Assembly: GCF_044324785.1 (NCBI RefSeq)
Contig: NZ_CP172127.1
DNA length: 64,000 nt
Strand: one strand, 5' to 3'
DNA from: Escherichia coli
GTDB lineage: Bacteria; Pseudomonadota; Gammaproteobacteria; Enterobacterales; Enterobacteriaceae
Part shown: one piece after another, positions 1,648 to 17,310 of the stretch
Layout: every line of letters begins with the position of its first letter
How positions within the stretch are numbered: position 1 is the stretch's first letter
Program-made: the position numbers and the translations under genes
The notes under the pieces: model-generated
Told to the model about the DNA's origin: nothing
What the model saw: the letters and a program-made list of their open reading frames with translations, nothing else
The model's database searches: none

Positions 1648-2601
1648 ATGATCGAAGTAAAACATCTGAAAACGCTACAAGCGTTGCGGAACTGCGGCTC
1701 GCTCGCAGCCGCTGCGGCGACGTTGCATCAGACGCAATCCGCCCTGTCTCACCAGTTTAGCGATCTGGAACAACGCCTTGGCTTCCGGCTATTTGTGCGT
1801 AAAAGCCAGCCGCTTCGCTTTACACCGCAGGGAGAAATCCTGTTGCAACTGGCAAATCAGGTGCTGCCGCAAATCAGCCAGGCACTGCAAGCCTGCAATG
1901 AACCGCAGCAGACGCGTCTGCGCATCGCCATTGAGTGCCATAGCTGTATTCAGTGGCTGACGCCCGCGTTAGAAAATTTCCATAAGAACTGGCCGCAGGT
2001 CGAGATGGACTTTAAATCGGGCGTGACATTTGACCCGCAGCCCGCCTTGCAACAGGGAGAGCTGGATCTGGTAATGACGTCCGATATTCTGCCGCGCAGT
2101 GGCCTGCATTATTCGCCGATGTTCGACTATGAAGTACGCCTGGTGTTAGCACCTGACCATCCATTGGCGGCAAAAACGCGTATTACACCGGAAGATCTCG
2201 CCAGCGAGACGCTGTTGATTTATCCGGTGCAGCGTAGCCGACTGGATGTCTGGCGGCATTTTCTTCAGCCGGCAGGCGTCAGCCCGTCACTGAAAAGCGT
2301 CGATAACACCTTATTGTTGATTCAGATGGTTGCCGCGCGGATGGGTATTGCCGCCCTGCCGCATTGGGTAGTAGAGAGTTTTGAGCGCCAGGGTCTGGTG
2401 GTGACCAAAACCCTGGGCGAAGGCTTGTGGAGCCGACTGTACGCCGCCGTGCGCGATGGCGAGCAGCGTCAGCCGATTACTGAAGCGTTTATTCGCTCAG
2501 CGCGCAATCACGCCTGCGATCATCTGCCGTTTGTGAAGAGCGCGGAGCGACCCACTTACGATGCACCCACAGTGAGGCCAGGATCACCAGCGCGCCTGTA
2601 A
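1648..2601 (+). CDS. metR: LysR-family transcriptional activator of metE/metH
   Basis: 317-aa [48 protein letters not shown]... with an N-terminal LysR helix-turn-helix; divergent from metE. Confidence 0.93.
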
Positions 2602-3388
2602 TGAACGTTGGCCAGTGCGGCTGTTGGTGCCAGATAGCCAGGTTTACCAGCAGCCCTGCCGGAACGTGCATATTATTCATAATGCCCAGCGTTCCGGCGT
2701 CCACCTGCGTCGCGCCGTAGTTCCACATAAAGTAGCCAATCCCGGAAGCCACCACGCCAAGAAACACCAGAATGCCCCATTGCAGCGTGGTTTGCGGCAT
2801 TTTCTGCGCATTTCCCAGCAAGAACCATGCAATCACCGCCACCAGGAACGCGCCAAGATAGAACCACGCAAAGGCGTTATGCTGCGGCATCGGGCGAGTT
2901 TCCATCAGACGTTTGTAACCCACCATGCCGATGGCAAAAGTGATATTGGAGAGCTGCACCAGCAGCAGGCCAGTCCAGAAGTGGTCGGTGACCTGATCAT
3001 AGCGAATAATCCCGGCACCAATCACCGCCAACAAGGCGCTAAAAGCATAGCCCCAGCGCAGACGGCGCTGACTCATGATGTCATAAATCAACGTGATGTA
3101 GAGCGGCGTCAGTACGGTGAACAGCAACAATTCGGAGACCGTCAGGTAGAGATAGGCGCGAAAACTCAGCATATACATCACGCCGAGCTGCATCGCGCCC
3201 ACCAGCATATACAGGCCGACCGTTTTCAGGCTATTGCCACGGGTACGCAGAAACGGTAAAAAAACGAGTGCCGCCAGGCCAACGCGCACCAGCACCGCAA
3301 AATAGCTATCGACGTGCCCCGCAAGGTACTCGCCATAAAAGCTAAAGGAGAAGGCCCACAGAATCGTGGTGATGATAAGTAGCGCCAC
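2489..3388 (-). CDS. yigM: EamA/DMT-family inner membrane transporter
   Basis: 299-aa polytopic hydrophobic ORF in the conserved position between metR and yigL; its 3' end overlaps the metR 3' end convergently. Confidence 0.85.
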
Positions 3389-3463
3389 AATGGAAAACTC
3401 TTTGATTAACGAGTATCCATTGTAGCGAAGTATCAGGTTGACAACTGACCAAATAAAGAACGA

Positions 3464-4264
3464 TTACGATAAATAGAGCTTACGCAGATAATGCGGCACT
3501 GCGTCCTCGGCGTTAGTACCAATCACTTCCAGCTCCGGATGCAGATCTTTCAGACGCTGGTGCGCACTGCCCATAATGCAGCCTTTCCCCGCCATCGACA
3601 GCATTTCGGCGTCGTTCATGCCATCGCCAAAGGCAATGCAATCTTGCAGGCTGTAGCCCAGTTTCTTCGCCACCGCTTCCAGCGCATGACCTTTCGACAC
3701 GCCGCCCGCCATCACTTCCAGACAGGTTAAGGTAGAGAAACTAACGTTGACGCGATCGCCCCAGCGAGCGTTGATCGCCTGCTCCAGCGGCAGAAGTTGT
3801 TCATGGGAATCGCAGGTGAAGAACACTTTGCTGACGCCTTCCGGCTCCAGTAATCCCGGCTCATACAGCGCATATTTGAACACCGCTTCTTTAAAAAAGC
3901 GCATCTCTTCCGGGCGATGGCGATTCATAAACCATTCGTCGTCGCGATAAACATTAGTAATGATGTCCGGATTGTCGTTGACTACGCCAAACAGATCGCT
4001 GGCAATGTCGCGATCCAGGTTATGAGCAAAAATCAGATTGCCATCCAGATCGTGAACGCGCGCGCCATTGGAGGTAATCATGTAAGACTTAATCTCCAGA
4101 TTATCGCGAATTTGCCCCACATCAACGTGGTGACGACCGGTCGCAAACACAAAGTTGATGCCGCGCGCGGTGAGCAGCTTCAGAGTTTCTTTGGCGTAAG
4201 GGGATAACGTATGGTCGGGAGAAAGTAACGTGCCATCTAAATCAGACGCAACAACCTGGTACAT
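3464..4264 (-). CDS. yigL: HAD-superfamily (Cof-type) sugar-phosphate phosphatase
   Basis: The ORF extends to 4390, but the start is placed at the internal Met (MYQVVASDLDGTLLSPDHTLSPYAKETLKLL...) giving ~266 aa; HAD motif DxDGTL at the N-terminus; 'cat' at 4262..4264. Confidence 0.85.
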   Translation of the reverse strand: MYQVVASDLDGTLLSPDHTLSPYAKETLKLLTARGINFVFATGRHHVDVGQIRDNLEIKSYMITSNGARVHDLDGNLIFAHNLDRDIASDLFGVVNDNPDIITNVYRDDEWFMNRHRPEEMRFFKEAVFKYALYEPGLLEPEGVSKVFFTCDSHEQLLPLEQAINARWGDRVNVSFSTLTCLEVMAGGVSKGHALEAVAKKLGYSLQDCIAFGDGMNDAEMLSMAGKGCIMGSAHQRLKDLHPELEVIGTNAEDAVPHYLRKLYLS

Positions 4265-4271
4265 AAGAAAT

Positions 4272-5294
4272 TTAAACCTCTGTAGAGCGGTTTCCGCTGG
4301 GTGAGTTATGCCTGTTGAAAAAATCAACGATGGCGTGGAGCGCGACTGAGCGCATTGCGTCCTTTTCAAAAAGGATCTCATGGTACGCACCTTTAATTAC
4401 CAACGGCCGTCCTCCTTCGACAGGATGGCCCGCGGCGGTGCGGAGTTCACAAAAACGATCGTGCATGCGGTTATCCACCACGCGTTCCTCTTCAGCTTGT
4501 AAGAGAAGCGTTGGCGTGGCGTCATCACCCGCACCGGCTAACACCTGTTCGCCAGCCAGAATACTTTCGCGTACCCAATGGTAGGTTGGCCCACCGACGC
4601 GAATCGTTGGGTCATCAGCATAGAAGCGTAAGTTACGTCGATATCGCTGTCTGCTGTGGGTCAGTACGTTGATAGCAAACGGCAACGCGCGCCAGCGCCC
4701 GGTGCCTATTGCATAGCCATCACGGAAACGTGGATGCGCTTCGGCCCAGTTGAGGATTTGCCGTGCCATAAATGACGGCATACGAATCACGATCCCAAAC
4801 ATTGGCGCAGTTAGCGCAATGGCGTCACATACACCTGGATGGCGTTGCAGAAATAATGTGGAGATCGCACCGCCCATTGAATGTGCCAGTATATAGCGTT
4901 TACGCCACGGACCGGGCTGAACCTCCTGTTGCCAGAATGCCGCCAGATCATCAACATAATCATTAAAGCGATTAACATGCCCGAGATGCGGATCGGCTAA
5001 CAGGCGACCGGAACGTCCCTGCCCGCGATGGTCGATGATTAAGACATCAAACCCCAAATGGAACAGGTCATAGGCCAGTTCCGCATATTTTACGTAGCTC
5101 TCAATACGCCCCGGGCAGATGACTACCACCCGGTCATGGTGCTGTGCGCGAAAACGGACAAAGCGCACCGGAATGTCATCCACACCAGTAAATTCTGCTT
5201 CATCACGCTGACGCCAGAAATCAGTCAGCGGTCCCATGGTAAAAGCAGCAAACGCGTTTTCTCTTGTTTCCCAGTCTTTTTGCTGCTGAAACAT
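4272..5294 (-). CDS. pldB: Lysophospholipase L2 (alpha/beta hydrolase)
   Basis: 340-aa ORF MFQQQKDWETRENAFAAF... with GHSMGG nucleophile-elbow motif; immediately upstream of yigL on the same strand. Confidence 0.92.
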   Translation of the reverse strand: MFQQQKDWETRENAFAAFTMGPLTDFWRQRDEAEFTGVDDIPVRFVRFRAQHHDRVVVICPGRIESYVKYAELAYDLFHLGFDVLIIDHRGQGRSGRLLADPHLGHVNRFNDYVDDLAAFWQQEVQPGPWRKRYILAHSMGGAISTLFLQRHPGVCDAIALTAPMFGIVIRMPSFMARQILNWAEAHPRFRDGYAIGTGRWRALPFAINVLTHSRQRYRRNLRFYADDPTIRVGGPTYHWVRESILAGEQVLAGAGDDATPTLLLQAEEERVVDNRMHDRFCELRTAAGHPVEGGRPLVIKGAYHEILFEKDAMRSVALHAIVDFFNRHNSPSGNRSTEV

Positions 5295-5404: not shown

Positions 5405-6025
5405 ATGACCTTAGAATGGTGGTTTGCCTACCTGCTGACATCGATCATTTTAAGCCTGTCGCCAGGCTCTGGCGCAATCAACACCATGACCACCTCGCTC
5501 AACCACGGTTATCGCGGCGCGGTGGCGTCTATTGCTGGGCTTCAGACCGGACTGGCGATTCATATTGTGCTGGTTGGCGTGGGTTTGGGGACGCTATTTT
5601 CCCGCTCAGTGATTGCGTTTGAAGTGTTGAAGTGGGCGGGCGCAGCTTACTTGATTTGGCTGGGAATACAGCAGTGGCGCGCCGCTGGCGCAATTGATCT
5701 TAAATCGCTAGCCTCTACTCAATCGCGCCGACATTTGTTCCAGCGCGCAGTGTTTGTGAATCTTACCAATCCCAAAAGTATTGTGTTTCTGGCAGCGCTA
5801 TTTCCGCAATTCATCATGCCGCAGCAGCCACAACTGATGCAGTATATCGTGCTCGGCGTCACCACTATTGTGGTCGATATTATTGTGATGATCGGTTACG
5901 CCACCCTTGCTCAACGGATTGCTCTATGGATTAAAGGACCAAAGCAGATGAAGGCGCTGAATAAGATTTTCGGCTCGTTGTTTATGCTGGTGGGAGCACT
6001 GTTAGCATCGGCGAGGCATGCGTGA
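5405..6025 (+). CDS. rhtB: LysE/RhtB-family homoserine/homoserine-lactone efflux protein
   Basis: 206-aa membrane [34 protein letters not shown]...; conserved position divergent from pldB. Confidence 0.92.
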
Positions 6026-8669: not shown

Positions 8670-9128
8670 TTAGCGTCTGGCTGGATAATGTTGGATGCTG
8701 GATTCCAGATTTGCCAGGATCAAAGCGACATCGGCATCCGCCAAACGAAATTCCGCCTGCCATATATTCTCTGACGTATGAAATGTAGGGCATAGCCCGC
8801 AAGCCAGTATCACTTTGATAATAATGACATCACCGGAATACCCTGTGTATTCGAACTCCAGGCATGGCTCGGTAAATTCCAGATTTTTCTCCGGGTAGCC
8901 ATCGGGAGAAGGGCGCTGCAACAATGTGGTAAACCACCTATGAAGCTTTGTTAAGTCATATGTCCCTATTGCCGGATCTATCTTTTCAAACCGCTGATTT
9001 CCCTGCGTCACGCCCACTTTGAGGAATAACCAGTTACCATCCCAGAAATTACTGGCATCAGGATACTGATACCCCATAACATCCAGCGTCAAAGTAACGG
9101 CCAGCTCACTATTGCTTAACGTAATCAT
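8670..9128 (-). CDS. Hypothetical 152-aa protein (candidate accessory gene between pldA and recQ)
   Basis: Intact ORF MITLSNSELAVTLTLDVMGYQYPDASNFWDGNWLFLKVG...; no signal peptide or transmembrane segment seen; does not match any protein I recognise; sits between two core genes. Confidence 0.55.
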   Translation of the reverse strand: MITLSNSELAVTLTLDVMGYQYPDASNFWDGNWLFLKVGVTQGNQRFEKIDPAIGTYDLTKLHRWFTTLLQRPSPDGYPEKNLEFTEPCLEFEYTGYSGDVIIIKVILACGLCPTFHTSENIWQAEFRLADADVALILANLESSIQHYPARR

Positions 9129-9176: not shown

Positions 9177-10046
9177 TTAAAACAGGTCGTTTAGCATAAC
9201 CCCCACACCAACGCGGGTCTGGTTGAAGTTATAGTCGATGAGCGATTCGCCATAGCCGCTGTAAACCTGAGTATAAAGGCGCACATGTTTGGTGATCGGG
9301 TAACTTAAGCCTAACTCCGCACCGCCGTAGCCCGTGTTCCAGTTGTACTGCCCTTTCGCACTGAGCACCGCATCACCGAGGTGATAGCCGATTTTAAGCT
9401 GGTAGTAACCCATATATTTGGTGATATCCGGGTTATCGTCAGTATTACCCACCACATACCACGGCTTCACCTCTACCAGCCAGTTACCGTTTTCTGCCAT
9501 CAGGCGTGTATAAAGGCGGTTCCAGCTGCGGGAGGTCGGGTCTGAACGCCCGTTAGAGTCGTGGTTATACCCCATCTCCACATCGCGCAGCGTCCAACCT
9601 GCAAAACGGTAATCGGTGGCAAAACCGAGGAACAATTGCGGTTCGTAGTTGGTTTCACGAAACGGTGAAGACTCTTCGCTATTGGACAGTTGCCACCAGG
9701 ATTTTTGCGTGTAAGACGCACCCAATACCGAGTTCGGGCCTAAAATCCCACGCCACAGCGGAAATGCCAGGCTCAACTGAAACTTTACTTCATCCTTACG
9801 CGCATTTTCCGCCCAGTCGTAACTGGCAATCGCTTCTTTATTCAGATCGCTGGTTTGGGTGTAGATGAGGTAGTTAGTGTCATAAGGATAGAGTGTGAAC
9901 GGATTGTCATGCTCCTGCAGCATATTGGCGATAATACTGCCACGCACCGCAGGCGCGTCATGCACCTCTTTCACCGTTGCCTCTTGTGCATATACTGCCA
10001 TAGGCAACATAAACACCGGCAACAACCAGCCCTGCAGAGTCCGCAT
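9177..10046 (-). CDS. pldA: Outer membrane phospholipase A
   Basis: 289-aa ORF MRTLQGWLLPVFMLPMAVYAQEATVKEVHDAPAVRGSIIANMLQEHDNPF... with N-terminal signal peptide. Confidence 0.93.
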   Translation of the reverse strand: MRTLQGWLLPVFMLPMAVYAQEATVKEVHDAPAVRGSIIANMLQEHDNPFTLYPYDTNYLIYTQTSDLNKEAIASYDWAENARKDEVKFQLSLAFPLWRGILGPNSVLGASYTQKSWWQLSNSEESSPFRETNYEPQLFLGFATDYRFAGWTLRDVEMGYNHDSNGRSDPTSRSWNRLYTRLMAENGNWLVEVKPWYVVGNTDDNPDITKYMGYYQLKIGYHLGDAVLSAKGQYNWNTGYGGAELGLSYPITKHVRLYTQVYSGYGESLIDYNFNQTRVGVGVMLNDLF

Positions 10047-10210
10047 CGGTCGTGTTCTCCGTAACGAATTATTGATAAGGTGAATATTTTTCTGCGGGCT
10101 ATTTTACATACTTAACTCCATAGCCGTTAGTTATCCCTTCCTAAAGTAGAAACCAACAACAAAGAAGCATAAAATCAACATTTCATTAACTAATGAAGTG
10201 TAAGGATGAT

Positions 10211-10678
10211 ATGTCTGCCGTACTGACCGCTGAACAAGCCCTGAAATTAGTGGGTGAGATGTTTGTTTATCACATGCCATTTAACCGCGCATTGGGGATG
10301 GAACTGGAGCGTTACGAAAAAGAGTTCGCACAGCTGGCCTTTAAAAATCAGCCAATGATGGTGGGTAACTGGGCGCAAAGCATTTTGCACGGCGGGGTCA
10401 TTGCATCGGCGCTGGATGTCGCCGCCGGTCTGGTGTGCGTGGGAAGTACCTTAACCCGCCACGAAACCATCAGTGAAGATGAACTACGCCAGCGGCTATC
10501 GCGAATGGGGACCATTGATCTTCGCGTTGATTATCTGCGCCCTGGCAGAGGCGAGCGTTTTACTGCTACCAGTAGCCTGTTGCGGGCAGGCAATAAAGTC
10601 GCCGTCGCCCGCGTTGAATTACACAATGAAGAACAGCTTTATATTGCCAGCGCTACCGCCACCTATATGGTAGGTTGA
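10211..10678 (+). CDS. yigI: PaaI/hotdog-fold acyl-CoA thioesterase
   Basis: Start placed at the internal ATG ([29 protein letters not shown]...), 155 aa; divergent from pldA. Confidence 0.85.
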
Positions 10679-10729
10679 TAACGTAAAAGCAGGTAAACTG
10701 CTGTTACCAATTAAAAATGAGTATTCCCG

Positions 10730-11620
10730 ATGGATGCAAAACAAACGCGGCAGGGCGTATTACTCGCTCTTGCCGCTTATTTTATTTGGGGTATTGCGCC
10801 AGCGTACTTCAAGCTGATTTACTACGTGCCCGCCGATGAGATCCTGACGCATCGCGTGATCTGGTCGTTTTTCTTTATGGTGGTGCTGATGAGCATCTGC
10901 CGCCAGTGGTCCTATTTAAAAACGCTGATTCAGACGCCACAGAAAATTTTTATGCTGGCAGTCTCTGCCGTGCTGATTGGTGGCAACTGGCTACTGTTTA
11001 TCTGGGCGGTGAACAATCACCATATGCTGGAAGCGAGCCTTGGTTACTTTATTAACCCGCTGGTGAACATTGTGCTGGGGATGATTTTCCTCGGCGAGCG
11101 ATTCCGCCGGATGCAATGGCTGGCGGTGATTCTGGCGATATGTGGCGTGTTGGTTCAGTTGTGGACTTTTGGTTCACTGCCGATTATCGCGCTGGGGCTG
11201 GCGTTTAGTTTTGCCTTCTACGGCCTGGTACGCAAGAAGATTGCTGTTGAAGCGCAAACCGGCATGTTAATCGAAACTATGTGGTTGCTGCCCGTGGCGG
11301 CGATTTACCTGTTTGCTATTGCCGACAGCTCAACCAGCCATATGGGGCAAAACCCGATGTCACTGAATTTACTGCTGATCGCCGCCGGGATTGTCACTAC
11401 CGTACCGCTGTTGTGTTTTACTGCGGCTGCGACACGCCTGCGTCTCTCAACGTTAGGCTTTTTTCAGTACATTGGCCCGACGCTGATGTTCCTGCTGGCT
11501 GTGACGTTTTATGGTGAAAAACCGGGTGCCGATAAGATGGTGACCTTCGCCTTTATTTGGGTGGCGCTGGCAATTTTTGTGATGGATGCGATTTATACGC
11601 AGCGTAGAACGTCCAAATAA
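10730..11620 (+). CDS. rarD: EamA-family membrane protein RarD
   Basis: 296-aa polytopic ORF MDAKQTRQGVLLALAAYFIWGIAPAYFKLIYY... Confidence 0.9.
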   Translation: MDAKQTRQGVLLALAAYFIWGIAPAYFKLIYYVPADEILTHRVIWSFFFMVVLMSICRQWSYLKTLIQTPQKIFMLAVSAVLIGGNWLLFIWAVNNHHMLEASLGYFINPLVNIVLGMIFLGERFRRMQWLAVILAICGVLVQLWTFGSLPIIALGLAFSFAFYGLVRKKIAVEAQTGMLIETMWLLPVAAIYLFAIADSSTSHMGQNPMSLNLLLIAAGIVTTVPLLCFTAAATRLRLSTLGFFQYIGPTLMFLLAVTFYGEKPGADKMVTFAFIWVALAIFVMDAIYTQRRTSK

Positions 11621-11714
11621 AAAATAAATATATTCTGAAAAAATATGCCGACTCTTGCATGAGAGTGGGCATATTGCCATGCTGACAGGAGACTCACACA
11701 AGGATGTAAAATTT

Positions 11715-12095
11715 ATGTTACGTATGTTTATCCCAACATCTAATGGTAAGATTTCCAGACGCCGTTATATATTTTCATTTATTTTAATAAATTTCATTTT
11801 TGCCTTTCTTATTATCTTTTTTAACGATGGGGAAGCAGATTTTCTTGTTATAGTCTCTACCATCGTACTCCATTATCTCGTCATCAACTTGAATTGCCAA
11901 CGACTCCGTGATAGTGGTTTCGTCTATATAAAAACTTATGTTTTTGGTACATTAGCAGTATATATCATCTCTATCATCACAATGATAGCCGAAGATTTTG
12001 CCTGTTCAGGCAATGGTTCGATGATTTTTTTGATTTGTTATTTTTCCACTTTCAGTATGCTAATGCTTGCACCTACTGATTCATCAAAACAATAG
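11715..12095 (+). CDS. yigF: Small inner membrane protein (DUF805-like RRLxDxG motif)
   Basis: 126-aa product from [20 protein letters not shown]... with two hydrophobic segments and the motif NCQRLRDSG; AT-rich; Shine-Dalgarno 'aagga' upstream of ATG 11715. Confidence 0.75.
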
Positions 12096-12108
12096 TTATG
12101 GAGTATTT

Positions 12109-12489
12109 ATGAGTAAGGAATATATGAACGATGGTTCATTAAGTGAAAAATGGAAATACCGATTTAATTTTTATGATCAACATGGCTTTCCAGGATTCTG
12201 GGGGGCAACACCAGAATATAAAGCAGCATTTAAAACATTAAAAGTAAGACAACGATTAACTATTCAAATGAATTTCATTGCTTTCTTCTGTTCCTGGATC
12301 TATTTATTTGTTCTGGGATTATGGAAAAAAGCAATTATAGTTCTATTACTTGGCATTCTATCTCTATTTGTTGGTGCACTAATTGGCGTTAACATTCTGG
12401 GAATTGCCGTAGCAGCCTATGTTGCTGTTAACACGAACAAATGGTTTTATGAGAAAGAGGTAAAAGGGTTAAATACCTGGAGCCTTTGA
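12109..12489 (+). CDS. yigG: Small inner membrane protein
   Basis: 126-aa product from MSKEYMNDGSLSEKWKYRFNFYDQHGF... with two hydrophobic helices; AT-rich. Confidence 0.75.
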   Translation: MSKEYMNDGSLSEKWKYRFNFYDQHGFPGFWGATPEYKAAFKTLKVRQRLTIQMNFIAFFCSWIYLFVLGLWKKAIIVLLLGILSLFVGALIGVNILGIAVAAYVAVNTNKWFYEKEVKGLNTWSL

Positions 12490-12496
12490 ATAACAG

Positions 12497-12530
12497 GTGG
12501 CTTAGCCAGGCTAAGCCACCGCCTTCTTTT
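12497..12530 (+). terminator. Intrinsic terminator after yigG (bidirectional hairpin at the ancestral yigG/corA junction)
   Basis: Stem 'ggtggcttagcc / ggctaagccacc' followed by 'gccttctttt'. Confidence 0.65.
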
Positions 12531-12679
12531 TACAACCAGTTCTTCCGCTTAAAGTACAGATACGGTGCCAGGCCCGCGAGGATCATAAAGATAATCGCGC
12601 CAGGGTAGCCGAAACTCCACTTCAGTTCCGGCATAAACTCAAAGTTCATGCCATAGCTGGAGGCAATCCGCGTAGGAAA
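12530..12679 (-). pseudogene. corA: Displaced 3'-terminal fragment of corA (last ~48 codons, no start)
   Basis: ~150 bp that is a near copy of corA 14241..14390 (identical over the first 70 bp, a handful of mostly silent mismatches afterwards, then diverging); encodes ...[44 protein letters not shown], identical to the CorA C-terminus. The 67-aa ORF 12530..12733 is this fragment fused to unrelated upstream sequence. Confidence 0.85.
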
Positions 12680-12856
12680 AAGTTTCCTAATCGGTAAATT
12701 CAACATTTTGTTATTAACAATGAGCAAGACCAATCATTAACGACGTTCTCTTCAGAGATGTAATGAAAAAATGTGAAGTGTACTTCTTTTCTAAATATTT
12801 TTTTACCCTAGCATTTGTTCTCGAATTGATATTGAGCTTAAATATAACTAAGGCAA

Positions 12857-13711
12857 ATGCAAATGAATAACATATTACTTCCGCCAATTAATATTCCCTG
12901 TACACTTTTCGAAACTATTAGTTTATTCGATGATTTTTCTGCTGATGATATGCAATATGGTGATATGGTAGAACAAGACTTTCTCTCACTCGGCCTAAGC
13001 GATATCTCAGCAAAAGTTGATCCTTACCGACTTATTAAATACCATTTCCCTGGCCCAGGTTCTATTAATGTTGCTTTTAGTGCCTCAAGTTCCGGAACAA
13101 AAATATCACAACGTGAATGCACTGATATTTTATTTGCAGAAATGAAAGAACTAGCAAAAATGTTTTCCTTTTTTGGACAATATAAAACACTTATCGAAGA
13201 TCTGATTGAAAATTTTAGATATGGAAATGGCAGCAATTTTCATAGCCAACAATTAAATTTATCTTTTCATGAAAAAATAAATAAATATGGTTATAATAGT
13301 CCAATACGAATAATCAAAGAATGTATCGAAAATGGCATTAATTCAACTCCCTCGACAGGATACCAACCTCTTATCCTGCAAAGCATTAAAACCAAATTAC
13401 TTTCATCAAGACTAAATAAATTTAATGACTTCAAGGACAGTTTTAATGGCTTAGGAATCAGTGTTCATGATATTTCAGCTCAAAAAATATCTCTTTTAAG
13501 TTTTCAAAAATACGCTATAGGATGGAGTGCAACAATTCATTTTGTAGCACAGGACCACTTCGGTCTCGATGTAACTGATATCAAAAACAAGACTTATAGC
13601 AAATATAGATTTTTTCGCATATGGTTCTTTTTACAACGGCATAAAGACTTTGCTTTCAAACCTTTTTTCACCAATTTTAACACTATAGAAAGAATCGAAA
13701 ATTATCTATGA
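12857..13711 (+). CDS. Hypothetical 284-aa protein, no signal peptide (candidate toxin/effector or defence protein of an inserted cassette)
   Basis: Intact ORF in strongly AT-rich DNA; better Shine-Dalgarno spacing suggests the second ATG (12863, MNNILLPP...) may be the start; contains a Cys (QRECTD) and downstream His residues (SVHDIS, TIHFVAQDHFGLD); stop overlaps the start of the next ORF. Confidence 0.65.
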   Translation: MQMNNILLPPINIPCTLFETISLFDDFSADDMQYGDMVEQDFLSLGLSDISAKVDPYRLIKYHFPGPGSINVAFSASSSGTKISQRECTDILFAEMKELAKMFSFFGQYKTLIEDLIENFRYGNGSNFHSQQLNLSFHEKINKYGYNSPIRIIKECIENGINSTPSTGYQPLILQSIKTKLLSSRLNKFNDFKDSFNGLGISVHDISAQKISLLSFQKYAIGWSATIHFVAQDHFGLDVTDIKNKTYSKYRFFRIWFFLQRHKDFAFKPFFTNFNTIERIENYL

Positions 13712-14199
13712 AAAGCAAACTCCAGAAAATTATATTATGTTTATTTCTTCTATGCTGCATCTATAATTTATGGACATTGCGTCCTGTACAGATTTTGTAT
13801 ACATACTCTGATGCTGGCAATTCAGTCTTTCTGGTCGTTGATCATCTGCCATGGACTGACAGCGATAAAATAAATTGGTATCTGAAGCATCAGAATGAAA
13901 TTAAAAATCAACATCCCCTACCAGAAGGTAGTTGGCATACCTGGTATGTCATTGATATCGGTAATGGCTTCACTGACTATAAAAAATATATTGAAGGGCC
14001 GTATGAAGATCTCTACTGTTTCCCGACAATTAAGAGCAATGATAATTGCATCGTGAAAAATTACTTAATGGTTATTAATGAATACCCTTATCGTAACACT
14101 CATATTGGTATTAACGATTTTACTGAGTATCAATTAACACAAGAAAATAAAATAGAGCGAGTTTTCAATCCGCATGACTTTAAAAAAGACAATTTTTAG
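13708..14199 (+). CDS. Hypothetical 163-aa protein with N-terminal signal/anchor segment (candidate immunity or partner protein)
   Basis: MKSKLQKIILCLFLLCCIYNLWTL... hydrophobic N-terminus; start ATG overlaps the upstream stop (ATGA at 13708..13711), implying translational coupling; AT-rich. Confidence 0.65.
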   Translation: MKSKLQKIILCLFLLCCIYNLWTLRPVQILYTYSDAGNSVFLVVDHLPWTDSDKINWYLKHQNEIKNQHPLPEGSWHTWYVIDIGNGFTDYKKYIEGPYEDLYCFPTIKSNDNCIVKNYLMVINEYPYRNTHIGINDFTEYQLTQENKIERVFNPHDFKKDNF

Positions 14200-14205
14200 A
14201 AATAA

Positions 14206-14233
14206 GCCGGATAAAAAAATAGCTTTATCCGGC
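14206..14233. terminator. Hairpin between convergent cassette ORF and corA (putative bidirectional terminator)
   Basis: Inverted repeat 'gccggataaa ... tttatccggc' with an A-rich loop. Confidence 0.5.
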
Positions 14234-14240
14234 ACTCATA

Positions 14241-15191
14241 TTACAACCAGTTCTTCCGCTTAAAGTACAGATACGGTGCCAGGCCCGCGAGGATCATAAA
14301 GATAATCGCGCCTGGGTAGCCGAAACTCCACTTCAGTTCTGGCATAAACTCAAAGTTCATCCCGTAGCTGGAAGCAACCAGCGTCGGTGGCAGGAACACC
14401 ACGGATACCACCGAGAAGATTTTGATGATGCGGTTCTGCTCGATGTTGATAAAGCCCATAGCCGCCTGCATCAGGAAGTTCACCTTCTGGAACAGGGATT
14501 CGTTATGCGGCAGCAGGGATTCGATATCTCGCAGGATTTCACGCGCCTGCTCCAGTTGCCCACCCGGTAAGCGTGCTTTACGTACCAGGAAGTTGAGCGC
14601 GCGCTGGGTATCCATCAGACACAGGCGAACTTTCCAGCCGATATCTTCCAGTTCCGCCAGCGTGGAGAGCGCCTCGTCGTACTCATCGCCCTGATGCCCT
14701 TCCATAATTACCCGGCTCAACTGCTCCAGGTCGCTGTAGATATTTTCAATTTCATCTGCCAACTGTTCGATTTTGGTTTCGAACAGATCCAGCAGCAGCT
14801 CGTAGGCATTACCGTCTACCATCGACTGGCTACGGGCACGCATACGATACAGACGGAATGCAGGCAATTCACGCTCACGCAGAGTAAACAGACGACCATC
14901 ACGGATGGTAAATGCCACAGTGGAGTTACCGGCGTGATCTTCCGCATCTTCAAAGAAGAAGAAGGAGTGAATATGCAGGCCGTCATCGTCTTCAAAGAAA
15001 CGTGCCGATGCTTCGATGTCTTCCAGTTCCGGGCGGGTTGCCAGGCTCTGGCCAAGTTCAGATTGTACGCGCAGTCGCTCGTCGTCGTCCGGTTCGACAA
15101 GATCAATCCATACTGCATTTACAAGGGGTTGTGACTCTTCGACTTCCAGCCGGGTCAGTCGGTTATTTTCCAGTTGAAATGCGCTCAGCAT
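14241..15191 (-). CDS. corA: Mg2+/Co2+ transporter CorA
   Basis: Start placed at [31 protein letters not shown]... (316 aa); C-terminal GMN motif ([11 protein letters not shown]); 'cat' at 15189..15191. Confidence 0.93.
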
Positions 15192-15560
15192 GACCGGGAC
15201 TCCCAATGCTTAAAATATCGGACAGTTCGGTGGGCACACAGAAACAAATTGGGTTTCAGACCATTAAACAGCCTGACTCAGCGCGACGGGAAAAATTGAG
15301 GTCGCTGACAACCGCTAAGGCTATCAGCAAAAAGGGATAGCCTTAGGAGTTGATCCTGGATGACAGGATAGTGAGCCAGTATCTACTGGGTGTGTCCAAG
15401 GCGAATGTCCTCTTAGAGTGATCGTGCGCGCATGTTACGCCAGCAAAATTTTGCCGTCAACACGCAACAGAACACCACAGAACAATAGTTGAACTTCGCG
15501 CTTTTTGGTACTCGTCAAGGTCGCTAACAGGATAAAAAAATCCCACATCCAGGACCTATA

Positions 15561-16325
15561 ATGGCGCATCGGCTACTCATTGGTAAAGGAATGATCACCT
15601 TGAATCTCAAACGGATTTTTCTCGCCCTCACCTTACTTCCCTTGTTTGCTGTTGCCGCTGATGATTGCGCACTCTCAGATCCGACGCTGACCGTACAGGC
15701 GTATACCGTTAATCCTCAAACAGAGCGGGTGAAAATATACTGGCAAAAAGCCAATGGCGAAGCGTGGGGAACGTTACATGCTCTGCTGGCGGATATGAAT
15801 AGTCAGGGTCAGGTGCAGATGGCGATGAACGGCGGCATCTATGATGAAAGCTATGCGCCGCTCGGTTTGTACATCGAAAACGGTCAGCAGAAGGTGGCGT
15901 TAAATCTCGCTTCAGGTGAAGGGAATTTCTTTATTCGTCCTGGCGGCGTGTTTTATGTCGCGGGAGATAAAATCGGCATCGTTCGTCTGGATGCCTTTAA
16001 AACCAGTAAAGAGATTCAGTTTGCGGTGCAGTCAGGGCCAATGTTGATGGAAAACGGCGTAATTAATCCGCGTATTCATCCCAACGTCGCCTCACGTAAA
16101 ATTCGTAACGGTGTTGGGATTAATAAACAAGGGAACGCCGTGTTTTTGTTGAGCAAGCAGGCGACAAATTTTTATGATTTTGCCTGTTATGCCAAAGCGA
16201 AACTGAACGTTGAGCAGCTGCTTTATCTTGATGGCACGATTTCACATATGTATATGAAAGGCGGGGCAATCCCGTGGCAACGCTATCCTTTTGTCACCAT
16301 GATTTCCGTCGAGCGGAAAGGTTAA
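15561..16325 (+). CDS. yigE: DUF2233-family secreted protein
   Basis: 254-aa ORF with signal peptide (…LALTLLPLFAVAADD); conserved position divergent from corA. Confidence 0.8.
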   Translation: MAHRLLIGKGMITLNLKRIFLALTLLPLFAVAADDCALSDPTLTVQAYTVNPQTERVKIYWQKANGEAWGTLHALLADMNSQGQVQMAMNGGIYDESYAPLGLYIENGQQKVALNLASGEGNFFIRPGGVFYVAGDKIGIVRLDAFKTSKEIQFAVQSGPMLMENGVINPRIHPNVASRKIRNGVGINKQGNAVFLLSKQATNFYDFACYAKAKLNVEQLLYLDGTISHMYMKGGAIPWQRYPFVTMISVERKG

Positions 16326-16407: not shown

Positions 16408-17310
16408 ATGAAAAAAACGCTCGCAACGTTATTTTTATTAACGTGTCTGGGATCATCATCCGCTTATGCGGATAACGCTTTGATTTTACAAACTGATTTT
16501 AGCCTGAAAGATGGTGCCGTCTCGGCGATGAAAGGGGTCGCATTCGGTGTTGACCATAATCTTAAAATATTTGATTTAACACACGAAATTCCACCGTATA
16601 ACATCTGGGAAGGCGCTTACCGCCTGTATCAGACCGCCAGTTACTGGCCGCAAGGTTCGGTATTTGTCAGTGTGGTCGATCCTGGTGTTGGTACAGACCG
16701 TAAATCGGTAGTGCTGAAAACCAAAAACGGTCAATACTTCGTTTCACCAGATAACGGTACGCTCACTTTGGTGGCACAAACTCTGGGTATTGATAGCGTC
16801 CGGGAAATCGACGAAAAAGCTAACCGCCTGAAAGGTTCTGAAAAGTCATATACCTTCCACGGTCGTGACGTGTATGCCTACACCGGTGCGCGTCTGGCTT
16901 CCGGGGCGATTACGTTCGAACAGGTGGGGCCAGAGCTTCCTGCAAAAGTTGTCGAACTTTCTTATCAGAAAGCAAAAGCAACAAAAGGTGAAGTGAAGGG
17001 CAATATCCCGATTCTCGATATTCAGTACGGCAACGTCTGGAGCAATATCAGCGACGAGTTGCTGAATCAGGCAGGAATCAAACTCAACGACACGTTGTGT
17101 GTGACCATTTCCGAAGGTTCCCAGCAAAAATACGCAGGGAAAATGCCGTATGTCGCAAGCTTCGGCGATGTGCCGGAAGGCCAGCCGATGGTGTATCTGA
17201 ACAGCTTGTTGAATGTTTCCGTGGCGCTGAATATGGATAATTTTGCGCAGAAACATCAGGTTGCGTCTGGTGCTGACTGGAATATTGATGTGAAGAAGTG
17301 CGCTAAGTAA
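16408..17310 (+). CDS. SAM hydroxide adenosyltransferase (DUF62) family protein with N-terminal signal peptide
   Basis: 300-aa ORF; signal peptide MKKTLATLFLLTCLGSSSAYA; then LILQTDFSLKDGAVSAMKGVAFGVD...THEIPPYNI...VSVVDPGVGTDRKSVVLKTKNGQYFVSPDNGTL, which matches the DUF62 N-domain pattern as I remember it. Confidence 0.7.
   Translation: MKKTLATLFLLTCLGSSSAYADNALILQTDFSLKDGAVSAMKGVAFGVDHNLKIFDLTHEIPPYNIWEGAYRLYQTASYWPQGSVFVSVVDPGVGTDRKSVVLKTKNGQYFVSPDNGTLTLVAQTLGIDSVREIDEKANRLKGSEKSYTFHGRDVYAYTGARLASGAITFEQVGPELPAKVVELSYQKAKATKGEVKGNIPILDIQYGNVWSNISDELLNQAGIKLNDTLCVTISEGSQQKYAGKMPYVASFGDVPEGQPMVYLNSLLNVSVALNMDNFAQKHQVASGADWNIDVKKCAK

Follow-up and report, generated by a model that had tools for sequence, protein, structure and literature searches.

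Introduction

Flexible islets of the replacement type, or recombination hot spots between core genes, are a general concept of the Escherichia coli pan-genome. The gap between rarD and corA analysed here resembles such islets in its fixed site, its alternative contents, its lack of mobile-element hallmarks and its exchange by flanking homology, with breakpoints where rarD and corA end. It differs from them in that the exchanged module is only 0.8-1 kb long and encodes two small membrane proteins, not surface polysaccharide or restriction genes. A literature search found no account of a hot spot between rarD and corA.

One of the two proteins, YigG, lies close to the DUF805 family, whose hallmark is an Arg-rich N-terminus together with an R-L-(H/R)-D-x-G loop that follows helix 2, and whose E. 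coli members are YhaH and YhaI. YigG has in common with this family a small, polytopic inner-membrane architecture, Arg residues clustered before helix 1 and the characteristic loop after helix 2. No functional knowledge was found in the DUF805 literature.

Both genes are already annotated in E. coli K-12 as yigG (b3818) and yigF (b3817), and their AT-richness, 'alien' character and H-NS silencing have been published. In K-12 the pair is an H-NS/EPOD-silenced, AT-rich 'promoter island' with intragenic promoters (PMC8282354, PMC7229825, PMC3661553). Deletion of yigG in Salmonella has been reported to give attachment and chlorine phenotypes (PMC3579871). A further described system is the DUF3289-DUF943 gene pair, in which DUF3289 is a colicin M-like candidate T6SS effector and DUF943 its cognate immunity protein (Geller et al. 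2024, PMC11148199). Toxicity and rescue were shown for a homologous pair, and the authors call its T6SS-dependent secretion unproven (PMC11148199).

The window analysed here is a stretch of 64,000 nucleotides of E. coli DNA, to which all positions refer and which matches strain N3 at 100% identity. It carries the same two genes as K-12, in the same order relative to rarD and corA, and K-12-type genomes are ~97.7% identical to it at the nucleotide level. Whereas yigF adjoins corA directly in the K-12 type, the window has a corA' scar and a DUF3289-DUF943 pair (hereafter the cassette) between them. The cassette has both domains of the described T6SS pair, the effector gene upstream of the immunity gene and a 4-nt overlap; unlike that pair it is an orphan next to corA rather than part of a T6SS cluster, and by homology it is a candidate effector/immunity pair.

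Results

A predicted two-gene operon encodes YigG and YigF

According to RefSeq and NCBIfam naming, the rarD-proximal gene is yigG and the corA-proximal gene is yigF (Table 1). An earlier sequence-only reading had swapped these names. It correctly noticed an RRLxDxG-type motif, NCQRLRDSG, but assigned it to 'YigF' when its carrier is YigG. Its size estimate of ~126 aa agreed with both plus-strand ORFs. The position of yigF's own Shine-Dalgarno sequence inside the 13-nt intergenic spacer indicates an operon, and the layout, read together with one common terminator, is that of a predicted two-gene transcription unit.

A crude consensus promoter scan returned 6 sites against 12.7 expected from shuffles, showing no enrichment, and called no promoter in 11621-11714. 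A null result from such a scan does not contradict the published PlatProm result. No non-coding RNA match at E <= 0.1 was obtained in an Rfam search of 10000-16000. By extension from the K-12 literature, H-NS/EPOD silencing may apply to the yigG-yigF region of the window as well, whose AT-richness was itself computed here.

Table 1 Features of the rarD-corA region in the window.
Feature	Position	Strand	Description
rarD (EamA transporter)	10730-11620	+	Conserved left flank
rarD-yigG intergenic region	11621-11714	+	36% GC; presumed to contain the promoter of yigG-yigF
yigG	11715-12095	+	126-aa ORF; four-helix inner-membrane protein; NCBIfam NF008474 equivalog
NCQRLRDSG motif	11892-11918	+	Loop after YigG helix 2; R63, R65, D66 and G68 invariant or nearly so
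GGAG Shine-Dalgarno of yigF	12100-12103	+	Within the yigG-yigF spacer; read from sequence
yigF	12109-12489	+	126-aa ORF; DUF2628; ~50 soluble N-terminal residues, then 2-3 membrane helices
G+C-rich hairpin, 11 pairs	12496-12520		Predicted bidirectional terminator: yigF (+), original corA 3' end (-)
corA' pseudogene	12530-12676	-	Last 147 nt of corA; direct repeat of 14241-14387; cassette-insertion scar
Cassette leader, AT-rich	12677-12862	+	29% GC over 12677-12856
DUF3289 / YPO3983-family protein	12863-13711	+	279.7 bits; TIGR03034 435.8 bits
DUF943 protein, N-terminal membrane anchor	13708-14199	+	93.2 bits; overlaps the effector gene at 13708-13711
Terminator-like hairpin	14206-14233	-	3' of intact corA
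corA, intact	14241-15191	-	Conserved right flank

YigG is a four-helix protein at the edge of DUF805 and YigF belongs to DUF2628

YigG matched NCBIfam NF008474 (PRK11371, the YigG equivalog) at 252.3 bits over residues 1-126, above the curated cut-off of 217. Against Pfam DUF805 (PF05656) it scored 17.7 bits (E = 0.005), below the gathering score of 25.7, and its homologues scored 12.9-22.1 bits. The DUF805 assignment of the sequence-only reading therefore fell short, being a real but sub-threshold match and attached to the wrong gene name. The hallmark residues of the family are nevertheless present: QRLRDSG (residues 62-68) forms a DUF805-type loop and, like SRRRY (residues 14-18), is invariant or nearly so among YigG proteins. 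The loop is predicted to be cytoplasmic by the positive-inside rule.

An exhaustive search with the YigG profile gave 30 matches at E <= 1e-3 among 1.84 billion cluster representatives and did not draw in the large DUF805 family. Ten of these matches were scanned for DUF805, of which one was above threshold and three were weak; a YigG-family protein that passes (P0176, 27.0 bits) has the motif KRLRDVG. The family is confined to Enterobacteriaceae, except for one borderline match in Providencia rettgeri (Morganellaceae). YigG is a four-helix bundle with an invariant R-x-R-D-x-G loop, in a tiny family at the edge of DUF805, and on these profile scores seems best called a divergent satellite of DUF805 and not a member.

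Both proteins had been described as two-helix. For YigG this was wrong, as hydropathy and an AlphaFold2 model (pLDDT 83.6) gave four hydrophobic helices. For YigF, hydropathy and AlphaFold2 gave ~50 soluble N-terminal residues, two strong hydrophobic segments and a third long C-terminal helix. YigF matched Pfam DUF2628 (PF10947) at 40.7 bits (E = 3.4e-10; gathering score 23), and its invariant LGLWKK and KW..RF motifs are common to Pseudomonas members of that family. YigG and YigF are unrelated small inner-membrane proteins. A short DNA repeat (INFIFAF / MNFIAFF) had prompted the idea that they are diverged paralogues, which was rejected (BLASTP E = 38; hhalign probability 0.1%). No informative fold match was found for either protein.

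The module is AT-rich at synonymous and non-coding sites

The GC content of yigG is 32.8% and that of yigF 34.4% (33.4% together), compared with 51.8% for the window, 51.0% for rarD and 52.6% for corA. The GC profile had been set beforehand as the refuting test, and it departed clearly from the flanks (z = -3.9 among 775-nt segments across the 64 kb, 1.5% of which were equally low). All 775-nt segments below 40% GC fell within one block, 11351-14500. GC3 was 0.315 in yigG and 0.276 in yigF, against 0.63 in rarD and 0.62 in corA, which places the bias at synonymous sites and not in amino-acid composition alone. The marked AT-richness relative to rarD was thus borne out, as was the proposed ~2.5-kb low-GC block at the corA 3' end: the block at 11621-14240 measures 2,620 bp at 33.9% GC and is broken by the 147-nt corA 3' fragment of 51% GC. 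Its non-coding spacers are likewise AT-rich (29-36% GC). The module also has a lower GC content than its flanks in Escherichia, Superficieibacter, Atlantibacter, Kosakonia, Pseudescherichia and Salmonella. Low GC therefore appears to be a trait that the module has kept in each genus rather than a mark of recent arrival.

yigG-yigF is an old occupant of the rarD-corA gap

In at least six genera the pair occupies the same site, with rarD on one side and corA on the other. Syntenic copies were found in Superficieibacter, Enterobacter sp. E76, E. whittamii, E. albertii, Atlantibacter, two Kosakonia species and Pseudescherichia. All nine loci with a YigF of at least 46% identity adjoin corA, and in the eight uncut by a contig end, rarD and a YigG-family ORF lie directly upstream of yigF. 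Distant DUF2628 loci (n = 71) have no YigG, RarD or CorA nearby. An ORF and repeat scan around 11621-12520 detected no integrase, transposase, tRNA, att site or flanking direct repeats. We found no genuine plasmid or phage carriage of the pair; the few plasmid and phage matches that were inspected, or judged by the size and type of the record, seem to be pieces of chromosome or mislabelled entries. The pair does have the atypical base composition and patchy within-species distribution of a genomic island, yet it is syntenic across six genera. We conclude that yigG-yigF has long resided in, and is locked to, the space separating the convergent rarD and corA genes, and is not a recent insertion.

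Alternative modules segregate between conserved flanks

We then surveyed 5,426 complete E. coli genomes, assigning states by megablast coverage thresholds rather than by inspection of each genome, and distinguished five main states of the gap. The K-12-type yigG-yigF was present in 2,407 genomes (44%), 300 of which also have the cassette, as in the window (5.5% of all genomes). An allele of yigG-yigF with 74%/70% identity was found in 565, a different YigG-like module in 1,431 and a yigG remnant fused to the cassette in 927, and the gap was empty in 28. The cassette occurred in 2,632 of the 5,426 (census figures in full: 2,407 / 300 / 565 / 1,431 / 1,410 / 927 / 28).

Two types of module can be distinguished. 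Type 1 is yigG-yigF, whereas type 2 consists of a 98-105-aa protein encoded on the opposite strand and a 128-157-aa YigG-like protein. Escherichia has both types segregating, and so does Salmonella, where both occupy the rarD-corA site. Comparison of E. coli alleles gave a dS of 0.6-1.3 for the module but 0.06-0.09 for the flanks, and a dN/dS of 0.25 for yigG and 0.15 for yigF; values below 1 indicate purifying, not positive, selection. At the nucleotide level, yigF of the E. coli type-1b allele and yigF of E. albertii are 99.5% identical, whereas identity drops to 93.9% in the adjacent corA. The last ~11 nt of rarD vary by allele class, and type-2 and empty alleles are homologous to the window up to 11609. 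With its diverged alternative contents, conserved flanks and step in identity at the yigF/corA boundary, the gap is a hot spot of the replacement type.

Cassette-only strains retain a 51-nt remnant of yigG (11751-11801) joined to position 12694, from which it follows that the cassette-only state arose by deletion from a state with both modules. One deletion derivative (L003) keeps 10700-11704 at 99.7% identity. From 12694 onward, the leader of the window's cassette is homologous to the sequence that precedes DUF3289 in cassette-only strains.

The cassette left a scar of corA

The corA' fragment and corA form a 152-nt repeat of 93% identity (94.6% over the 147-nt fragment), and the inner ~27 nt of corA' differ from all functional corA alleles examined. 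Type-1 and type-2 E. coli backgrounds share the corA' junction, and this common junction suggests a single origin of the insertion. Atlantibacter and Enterobacter sp. E76 have the tandem arrangement rarD-yigG-yigF-corA'-rarD'-DUF3289-DUF943-corA. The Atlantibacter junction, a 267-nt corA' plus a rarD' fragment, is unlike that of E. coli, so cassette insertions may be independent. No homology was detectable between yigG or yigF and the cassette. A WapI-family immunity annotation lies near the locus, at 8670-9128.

Discussion

The explanation we favour, with a probability of roughly 0.6, is that yigG-yigF is an old, locus-locked operon encoding two small inner-membrane proteins, whose alleles have been swapped, beside which a cassette was inserted, which has suffered deletions and whose AT-richness is maintained. 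Homologous recombination within the conserved flanks most likely swaps the module as a whole. The module exists in two deeply diverged types, 1 and 2, and one E. coli allele is nearly identical to the E. albertii allele. The DUF3289-DUF943 pair was probably inserted once into the 3' end of corA, an event that would have brought a new corA 3' end and left the 147-nt scar. Later deletions gave rise to the cassette-only and empty states, and the window shows the minority intermediate that has both modules (5.5% of the E. coli genomes). Repeated import between species would explain the trans-species polymorphism equally well, of which there is at least one case (E. coli type 1b and E. albertii).

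The sequence-only reading had proposed that this junction repeatedly accepted foreign small membrane-protein genes. The part that stands is the polymorphic hot spot with alternative AT-rich modules, including import of an E. albertii-like allele; the part that does not is yigG-yigF as a recent insert, given its synteny in at least six genera and lack of mobile-element traits. The comparison of phylogenetic distributions that it suggested also went against it, with the pair old at the site and the cassette-only state a deletion derivative. The fuller version of that proposal, in which yigG, yigF and the cassette are separate and fairly recent foreign acquisitions inserted serially at the corA 3' junction, is unlikely. 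Strongly low GC and GC3, the presence/absence polymorphism among E. coli genomes, H-NS/EPOD silencing of the kind typical for xenogeneic DNA, the corA' repeat left by the cassette and an allele clearly imported from, or common to, E. albertii all speak for it. For yigG-yigF, however, it is largely refuted by same-site synteny, and it fits poorly with a YigG family found almost nowhere beyond Enterobacteriaceae, with a pair that has no flanking repeats, integrase or tRNA and is not carried on genuine plasmids or phages, and with the derivation of the cassette-only state by deletion. Low GC as a mere by-product of hydrophobic proteins rich in Ile, Phe, Leu, Asn and Lys, silent on history or regulation, is highly improbable. 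YigG and YigF are indeed rich in these residues, and their GC1 and GC2 are low (0.33-0.41), but their GC3 is 0.28-0.32 against 0.63 in rarD, itself a polytopic membrane protein, and the non-coding spacers are AT-rich too. Amino-acid composition as a sufficient cause is ruled out by this inequality at synonymous sites.

What the proteins do is a separate matter. It is very unlikely that yigG and yigF lack a function or are decaying within an AT-rich spacer, as annotation artefacts or pseudogenes in the making would. They are silenced in K-12, often lost from E. coli by deletion, frameshifted in Enterobacter sp. E76 and fragmented in another locus (L098), and yigG-family ORFs are often missed by gene callers; yet intact ORFs of conserved length persist in different genera, dN/dS is 0.15-0.25 where dS is 0.6-1.3, the motif residues are invariant, the AlphaFold2 models are confident and loss of yigG has the phenotypes reported in Salmonella (PMC3579871). 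A membrane toxin/antitoxin or abortive-infection module, in which depolarisation of the cell by one protein is kept in check by the other, is quite unlikely. Two tightly coupled genes for small membrane proteins, silenced, hypervariable and set among conflict genes (DUF3289/DUF943, WapI-family), would suit such a module. Against it, neither YigG, YigF nor either type-2 protein has a match in PADLOC or PHROGs, and no known defence or toxin/antitoxin model was hit; the YigG-family gene is paired with YigF in some loci and with the 98-105-aa protein in others, and 71 loci have a distant relative of YigF on its own. The pair is also often deleted, and so shows no sign of addiction.

An immunity-like role within the favoured history is put forward tentatively. 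YigG and YigF might be protective, immunity-like membrane proteins, normally silenced, with membrane-targeting toxins or phage maintaining their alleles through balancing or diversifying selection; this is a possible but doubtful reading. The membrane immunity proteins of pore-forming toxins have 3-4 helices, and YigG has four. No cognate toxin gene was found adjacent to yigG or yigF, nor any likeness in sequence or fold to a known immunity protein. Rather unlikely is the stronger form, in which the YigG family is a locus-locked trans-species polymorphism of at least two ancient modules, maintained in Escherichia as well as Salmonella, swapped from species to species and persisting as immunity-like or exclusion proteins against membrane-targeting toxins or phages. 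The polymorphism itself is shown by the data, whereas the protective role is speculative.

An AT-rich module held at one site across several genera means that low GC fails here as a clock for foreign origin. The 128-aa YigG-like gene, present in about a quarter of E. coli genomes, is unannotated in the RefSeq records listed. The locus illustrates step by step how so small a hot spot diversifies: alleles are replaced, a single insertion rebuilds the 3' end of its target gene, and deletions follow. If the modules are protective, two y-genes would gain a testable role and E. coli a new class of chromosomal protective module.

Gene content of the rarD-corA interval

Over 11600-14300 the window is a 100% match to E. 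coli strain N3. The sequence-only reading had placed the gene pair at exactly the coordinates of the RefSeq annotation and had reversed the two names: the ORF carrying NCQRLRDSG is yigG (NCBIfam NF008474, 252 bits against a cut-off of 217) and the other is yigF (Pfam DUF2628, 40.7 bits against a gathering score of 23). With a spacer of 13 nt, a GGAG 5' of yigF and one shared hairpin after yigF, the two genes look like an operon.

Features of the rarD-corA region in the window
Feature	Position	Strand	Remarks
WapI family immunity protein (label)	8670-9128	-	RefSeq label; 152 aa; adjoins pldA
pldA		-	RefSeq; first in order
yigI		+	RefSeq; between pldA and rarD
rarD	10730-11620	+	RefSeq
yigG	11715-12095	+	RefSeq; rarD-proximal
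NCQRLRDSG motif	11892-11918		inside yigG
yigF	12109-12489	+	RefSeq; corA-proximal
G+C-rich hairpin, 11 bp	12496-12520		3' of yigF; can terminate both ways
corA' (CorA pseudogene fragment)	12530-12676	-	RefSeq
Putative 67-aa ORF, TTG start	12530-12733	-	encloses corA'; RefSeq: pseudogene
YPO3983/DUF3289 protein	12863-13711	+	RefSeq
DUF943 protein	13708-14199	+	RefSeq
corA, intact	14241-15191	-	RefSeq
yigE	15561-16325	+	
SAM hydrolase/halogenase-family gene	16408-17310	+	beyond yigE

The WapI-labelled ORF has no NCBIfam match and may represent a second orphan immunity gene, lying just 2.5 kb away from the rarD-corA hot spot. The putative 67-aa ORF consists of 20 novel residues followed by the last two CorA membrane helices.

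YigG had been described as a two-helix protein. Hydrophobicity analysis instead identified four segments (residues 18-36, 43-61, 74-92 and 101-119), and AlphaFold2 modelled a four-helix bundle (pLDDT 83.6, pTM 0.71). The positive-inside rule predicts a cytoplasmic location for both termini and for the R-L-R-D-S-G loop. YigF begins with about 50 residues in short helices; two strongly hydrophobic helices come next, and then a third, long one (pLDDT 86.4). No relatedness between YigG and YigF was detectable (BLASTP E = 38, hhalign probability 0.1%), and the operon encodes two unrelated small inner-membrane proteins. Neither matched an entry in PADLOC or PHROGs, the fold search was uninformative and an Rfam search of the region matched no family.

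The motif had been associated with DUF805, which proved a useful lead although the gene had been misnamed and YigG scores under the family threshold (17.7 bits, E = 0.005, gathering score 25.7). YigG homologues gave 12.9-22.1 bits, and one hit of the YigG profile (P0176) clears DUF805 at 27.0 bits. An exhaustive search of 1.84 billion cluster representatives with that profile, built from 12 YigG-family sequences, found just 30 proteins at E <= 1e-3; named clusters fell in Escherichia/Shigella, Salmonella, Pseudescherichia/Buttiauxella and Enterobacter sp., plus one borderline Providencia. An R-[LF]-R-D-x-G loop is common to all YigG-family members. We conclude that YigG lies outside the Pfam-defined membership of DUF805 and is probably a small divergent satellite of it.

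Low GC content and conservation of the site

As had been claimed, the pair is AT-rich, with a GC content of 32.8% in yigG, 34.4% in yigF and 33.4% in both together, compared with 51.8% for the window, 51.0% for rarD and 52.6% for corA. Set against the 775-nt windows of the 64 kb, the pair's value has z = -3.9; only 1.5% of these windows were equally low, and all those below 40% GC were confined to one block, 11351-14500. The GC profile of the pair thus differs from that of its flanks, as does GC3 (0.315 in yigG and 0.276 in yigF versus 0.63 and 0.62). Since rarD also encodes a polytopic membrane protein, yet has a GC3 of 0.63, hydrophobic amino-acid content fails to explain the bias and was ruled out as its cause. 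The low-GC block reported at this junction is real (11621-14240, 2.6 kb, 33.9%) but not continuous, being broken by the 147-nt corA' at 51% GC.

To examine the locus outside E. coli, a YigF alignment was run over one genome per GTDB species, followed by tblastn. At YigF identities of at least 46%, nine of nine loci adjoin corA, and every contig not cut at yigF has rarD and a YigG-family ORF immediately upstream. Eight of the nine come from E. coli, Escherichia sp. E1V33, E. whittamii, E. albertii, Superficieibacter electus, Atlantibacter subterranea, Kosakonia cowanii and K. oryzendophytica; the other, a 1.5-kb contig labelled Alistipes, is essentially E. coli in sequence. Pseudescherichia vulneris also has the order rarD-yigG-yigF-corA. 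DUF2628 also occurs at 71 more distant loci, in Pseudomonas, Pantoea, Proteus and other genera, all of which lack YigG, RarD and CorA within 5 kb. The GC content of the module was below that of its flanks in every genus examined, at 33-39% in Escherichia, Superficieibacter, Atlantibacter and Salmonella and 45-47% versus 53-57% in Kosakonia and Pseudescherichia. Low GC is a persistent property of the module and no sign of recent arrival. A recent foreign addition does not fit a pair that occupies the same site, at low GC, across genera; the shared gene order shows that yigG-yigF is a resident of this one site.

Atlantibacter and Enterobacter sp. E76 share the order rarD-yigG-yigF-corA'-rarD'-DUF3289-DUF943-corA, where rarD' is a rarD 3' fragment. 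In this arrangement two 'rarD-end to corA-end' frames follow one another in tandem, apparently through the joining of two alternative locus versions. The adjacent corA and rarD 3' fragments lie at 4429-4910 in the E76 locus (L007) and 5432-5907 in the A. subterranea locus (L019). In E. whittamii (L016, 5487-5975), an orphan DUF943 immunity gene without the DUF3289 effector follows yigG-yigF.

States of the locus in E. coli

Across 5,426 complete E. coli genomes, megablast counts separated five main states, together accounting for 98.7% of the genomes. The cassette (DUF3289-DUF943) was counted in 2,632 genomes, in agreement with 300 + 1,410 + 927.

States of the rarD-corA interval in complete E. 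coli genomes
State	Genomes	Remarks
Type 1, K-12-like yigG-yigF	2,407 (44%)	300 of 2,407 (5.5% of all genomes) add corA' and DUF3289-DUF943, the window's arrangement
Type 1b, diverged yigG-yigF	565	74% / 70% aa identity
Type 2, different 976-bp module	1,431	1,410 of 1,431 joined to corA' plus cassette
yigG remnant fused to cassette	927	
Empty: rarD, 128 bp, corA	28	

The type 2 module consists of a 128-aa YigG-like ORF (NF008474, E = 7e-6; 26% identity to YigG) and a minus-strand gene for a 105-aa membrane protein. At L002, a type 2 locus, the YigG-like ORF lies at 3090-3476 (+) and the opposite-strand ORF at 2575-2892 (-). In the RefSeq records listed, the YigG-like ORF lacks annotation and only the opposite-strand 'hypothetical protein' of 101-105 aa is called. 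Type 2 carriers, about 1,431 E. coli genomes, include O157:H7 and O111. Both module types occur in Salmonella (type 1 in serovar Senftenberg, type 2 in many serovars), and its type 2 proteins share 58% and 49% identity with their E. coli counterparts.

The remnant consists of 51 nt of yigG (window 11751-11801) joined directly to window position 12694, so the cassette-only state is a deletion product of the window's arrangement with both modules; this yigG remnant at the junction rules out a separate insertion. Next to the cassette, corA' is a scar: it and its junction are identical in type 1 and type 2 backgrounds, its inner ~27 nt are unlike any functional corA allele examined, and the intact corA of the window has an ordinary E. 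coli 3' end. The cassette insertion in E. coli probably had a single origin.

A mosaic of truncated yigG, yigF fragments and a DUF3289 fragment was seen in one Escherichia genome (L098, GCA_045607565.1, 3501-5919), where a second, intact yigF follows the fragments and precedes corA. The stretch just past corA is another presence/absence spot: yigE is missing in comparison locus L005 and frameshifted in L003 (a cassette-only locus), and, of the five E. coli loci examined, all but L002 have the SAM hydrolase/halogenase-family gene.

Allele exchange and search for mobile elements

Between the window and type 1b, yigG differs by dS = 0.61 and dN = 0.154 (dN/dS = 0.25) and yigF by dS = 1.3 (dN/dS = 0.15), ratios that place both genes under purifying selection. 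The flanks differ by dS of only 0.086 (rarD) and 0.062 (corA), with dN ~0. The yigG and yigF alleles are thus far older than the surrounding chromosome, or imported. The two genes have had different histories: window YigF is 83% identical to that of Superficieibacter and 70% to that of type 1b, the corresponding values for YigG being 46% and 74%. In one case import is directly visible: the type 1b yigF and the spacer after it (L004, 3011-3433) match those of E. albertii NBRC 107761 (L018, 33-455) at 99.5% and 100% nucleotide identity, whereas the adjoining corA is 93.9% identical, the mark of a recent transfer between E. coli and E. albertii. The breakpoint falls either at the terminator or in the 3' end of corA; on the rarD side, homology between classes stops 11 nt inside the rarD 3' end. 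Together, these comparisons show several deep allele classes and at least one inter-species exchange. Balancing or diversifying selection would keep these classes in place.

The window shows no integrase, transposase or tRNA and no flanking repeat around yigG-yigF, and the tblastn matches from collections of plasmids and phages appear to be pieces of chromosome under wrong labels. The 141-kb Salmonella Senftenberg 'plasmid 4' in PLSDB (L099, NZ_LN868946.1) carries recQ-pldA-yigI-rarD-yigG-yigF-corA-uvrD, a gene content that marks it as evidently chromosomal in origin. Two yigF-matching 'phage' records (1.6-3.5 kb) look like similar chromosomal fragments.

Silencing, function and evolution of the pair

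In K-12, yigF and yigG have served to illustrate a small extended protein-occupancy domain, a class tied to H-NS silencing (PMC8282354). An H-NS-repressed intragenic promoter within yigG serves as a model of spurious transcription in horizontally acquired genes (PMC7229825), and yigG-yigF is an illustrative 'promoter island' (PMC3661553). The pair is probably silenced by H-NS in the window's strain. A Salmonella yigG deletion mutant attached less well to produce and grew less well under chlorine, and S. Enteritidis is without yigG (PMC3579871), which fits the polymorphism found at rarD-corA. DUF3289 has been proposed to be a candidate T6SS effector resembling colicin M, and DUF943 to be its immunity protein (PMC11148199; PMC12469244). 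Size and topology, fast evolution with long-lived alleles, and a neighbourhood containing this effector/immunity pair and the WapI-family immunity annotation suggest that YigG and YigF could be protective, immunity-like membrane components, a speculative role that we regard as rather unlikely.

The two genes were known before, as were their AT-richness and silencing, and the locus census and trans-genus polymorphism are incremental additions. The sequence-only reading had proposed that this junction repeatedly accepted foreign genes; it is indeed a hot spot that foreign alleles enter, as with the type 1b/E. albertii yigF. However, yigG-yigF is the ancestral occupant of the rarD-corA gap, and the locus probably changes mainly by allelic replacement and deletion rather than by serial insertion.
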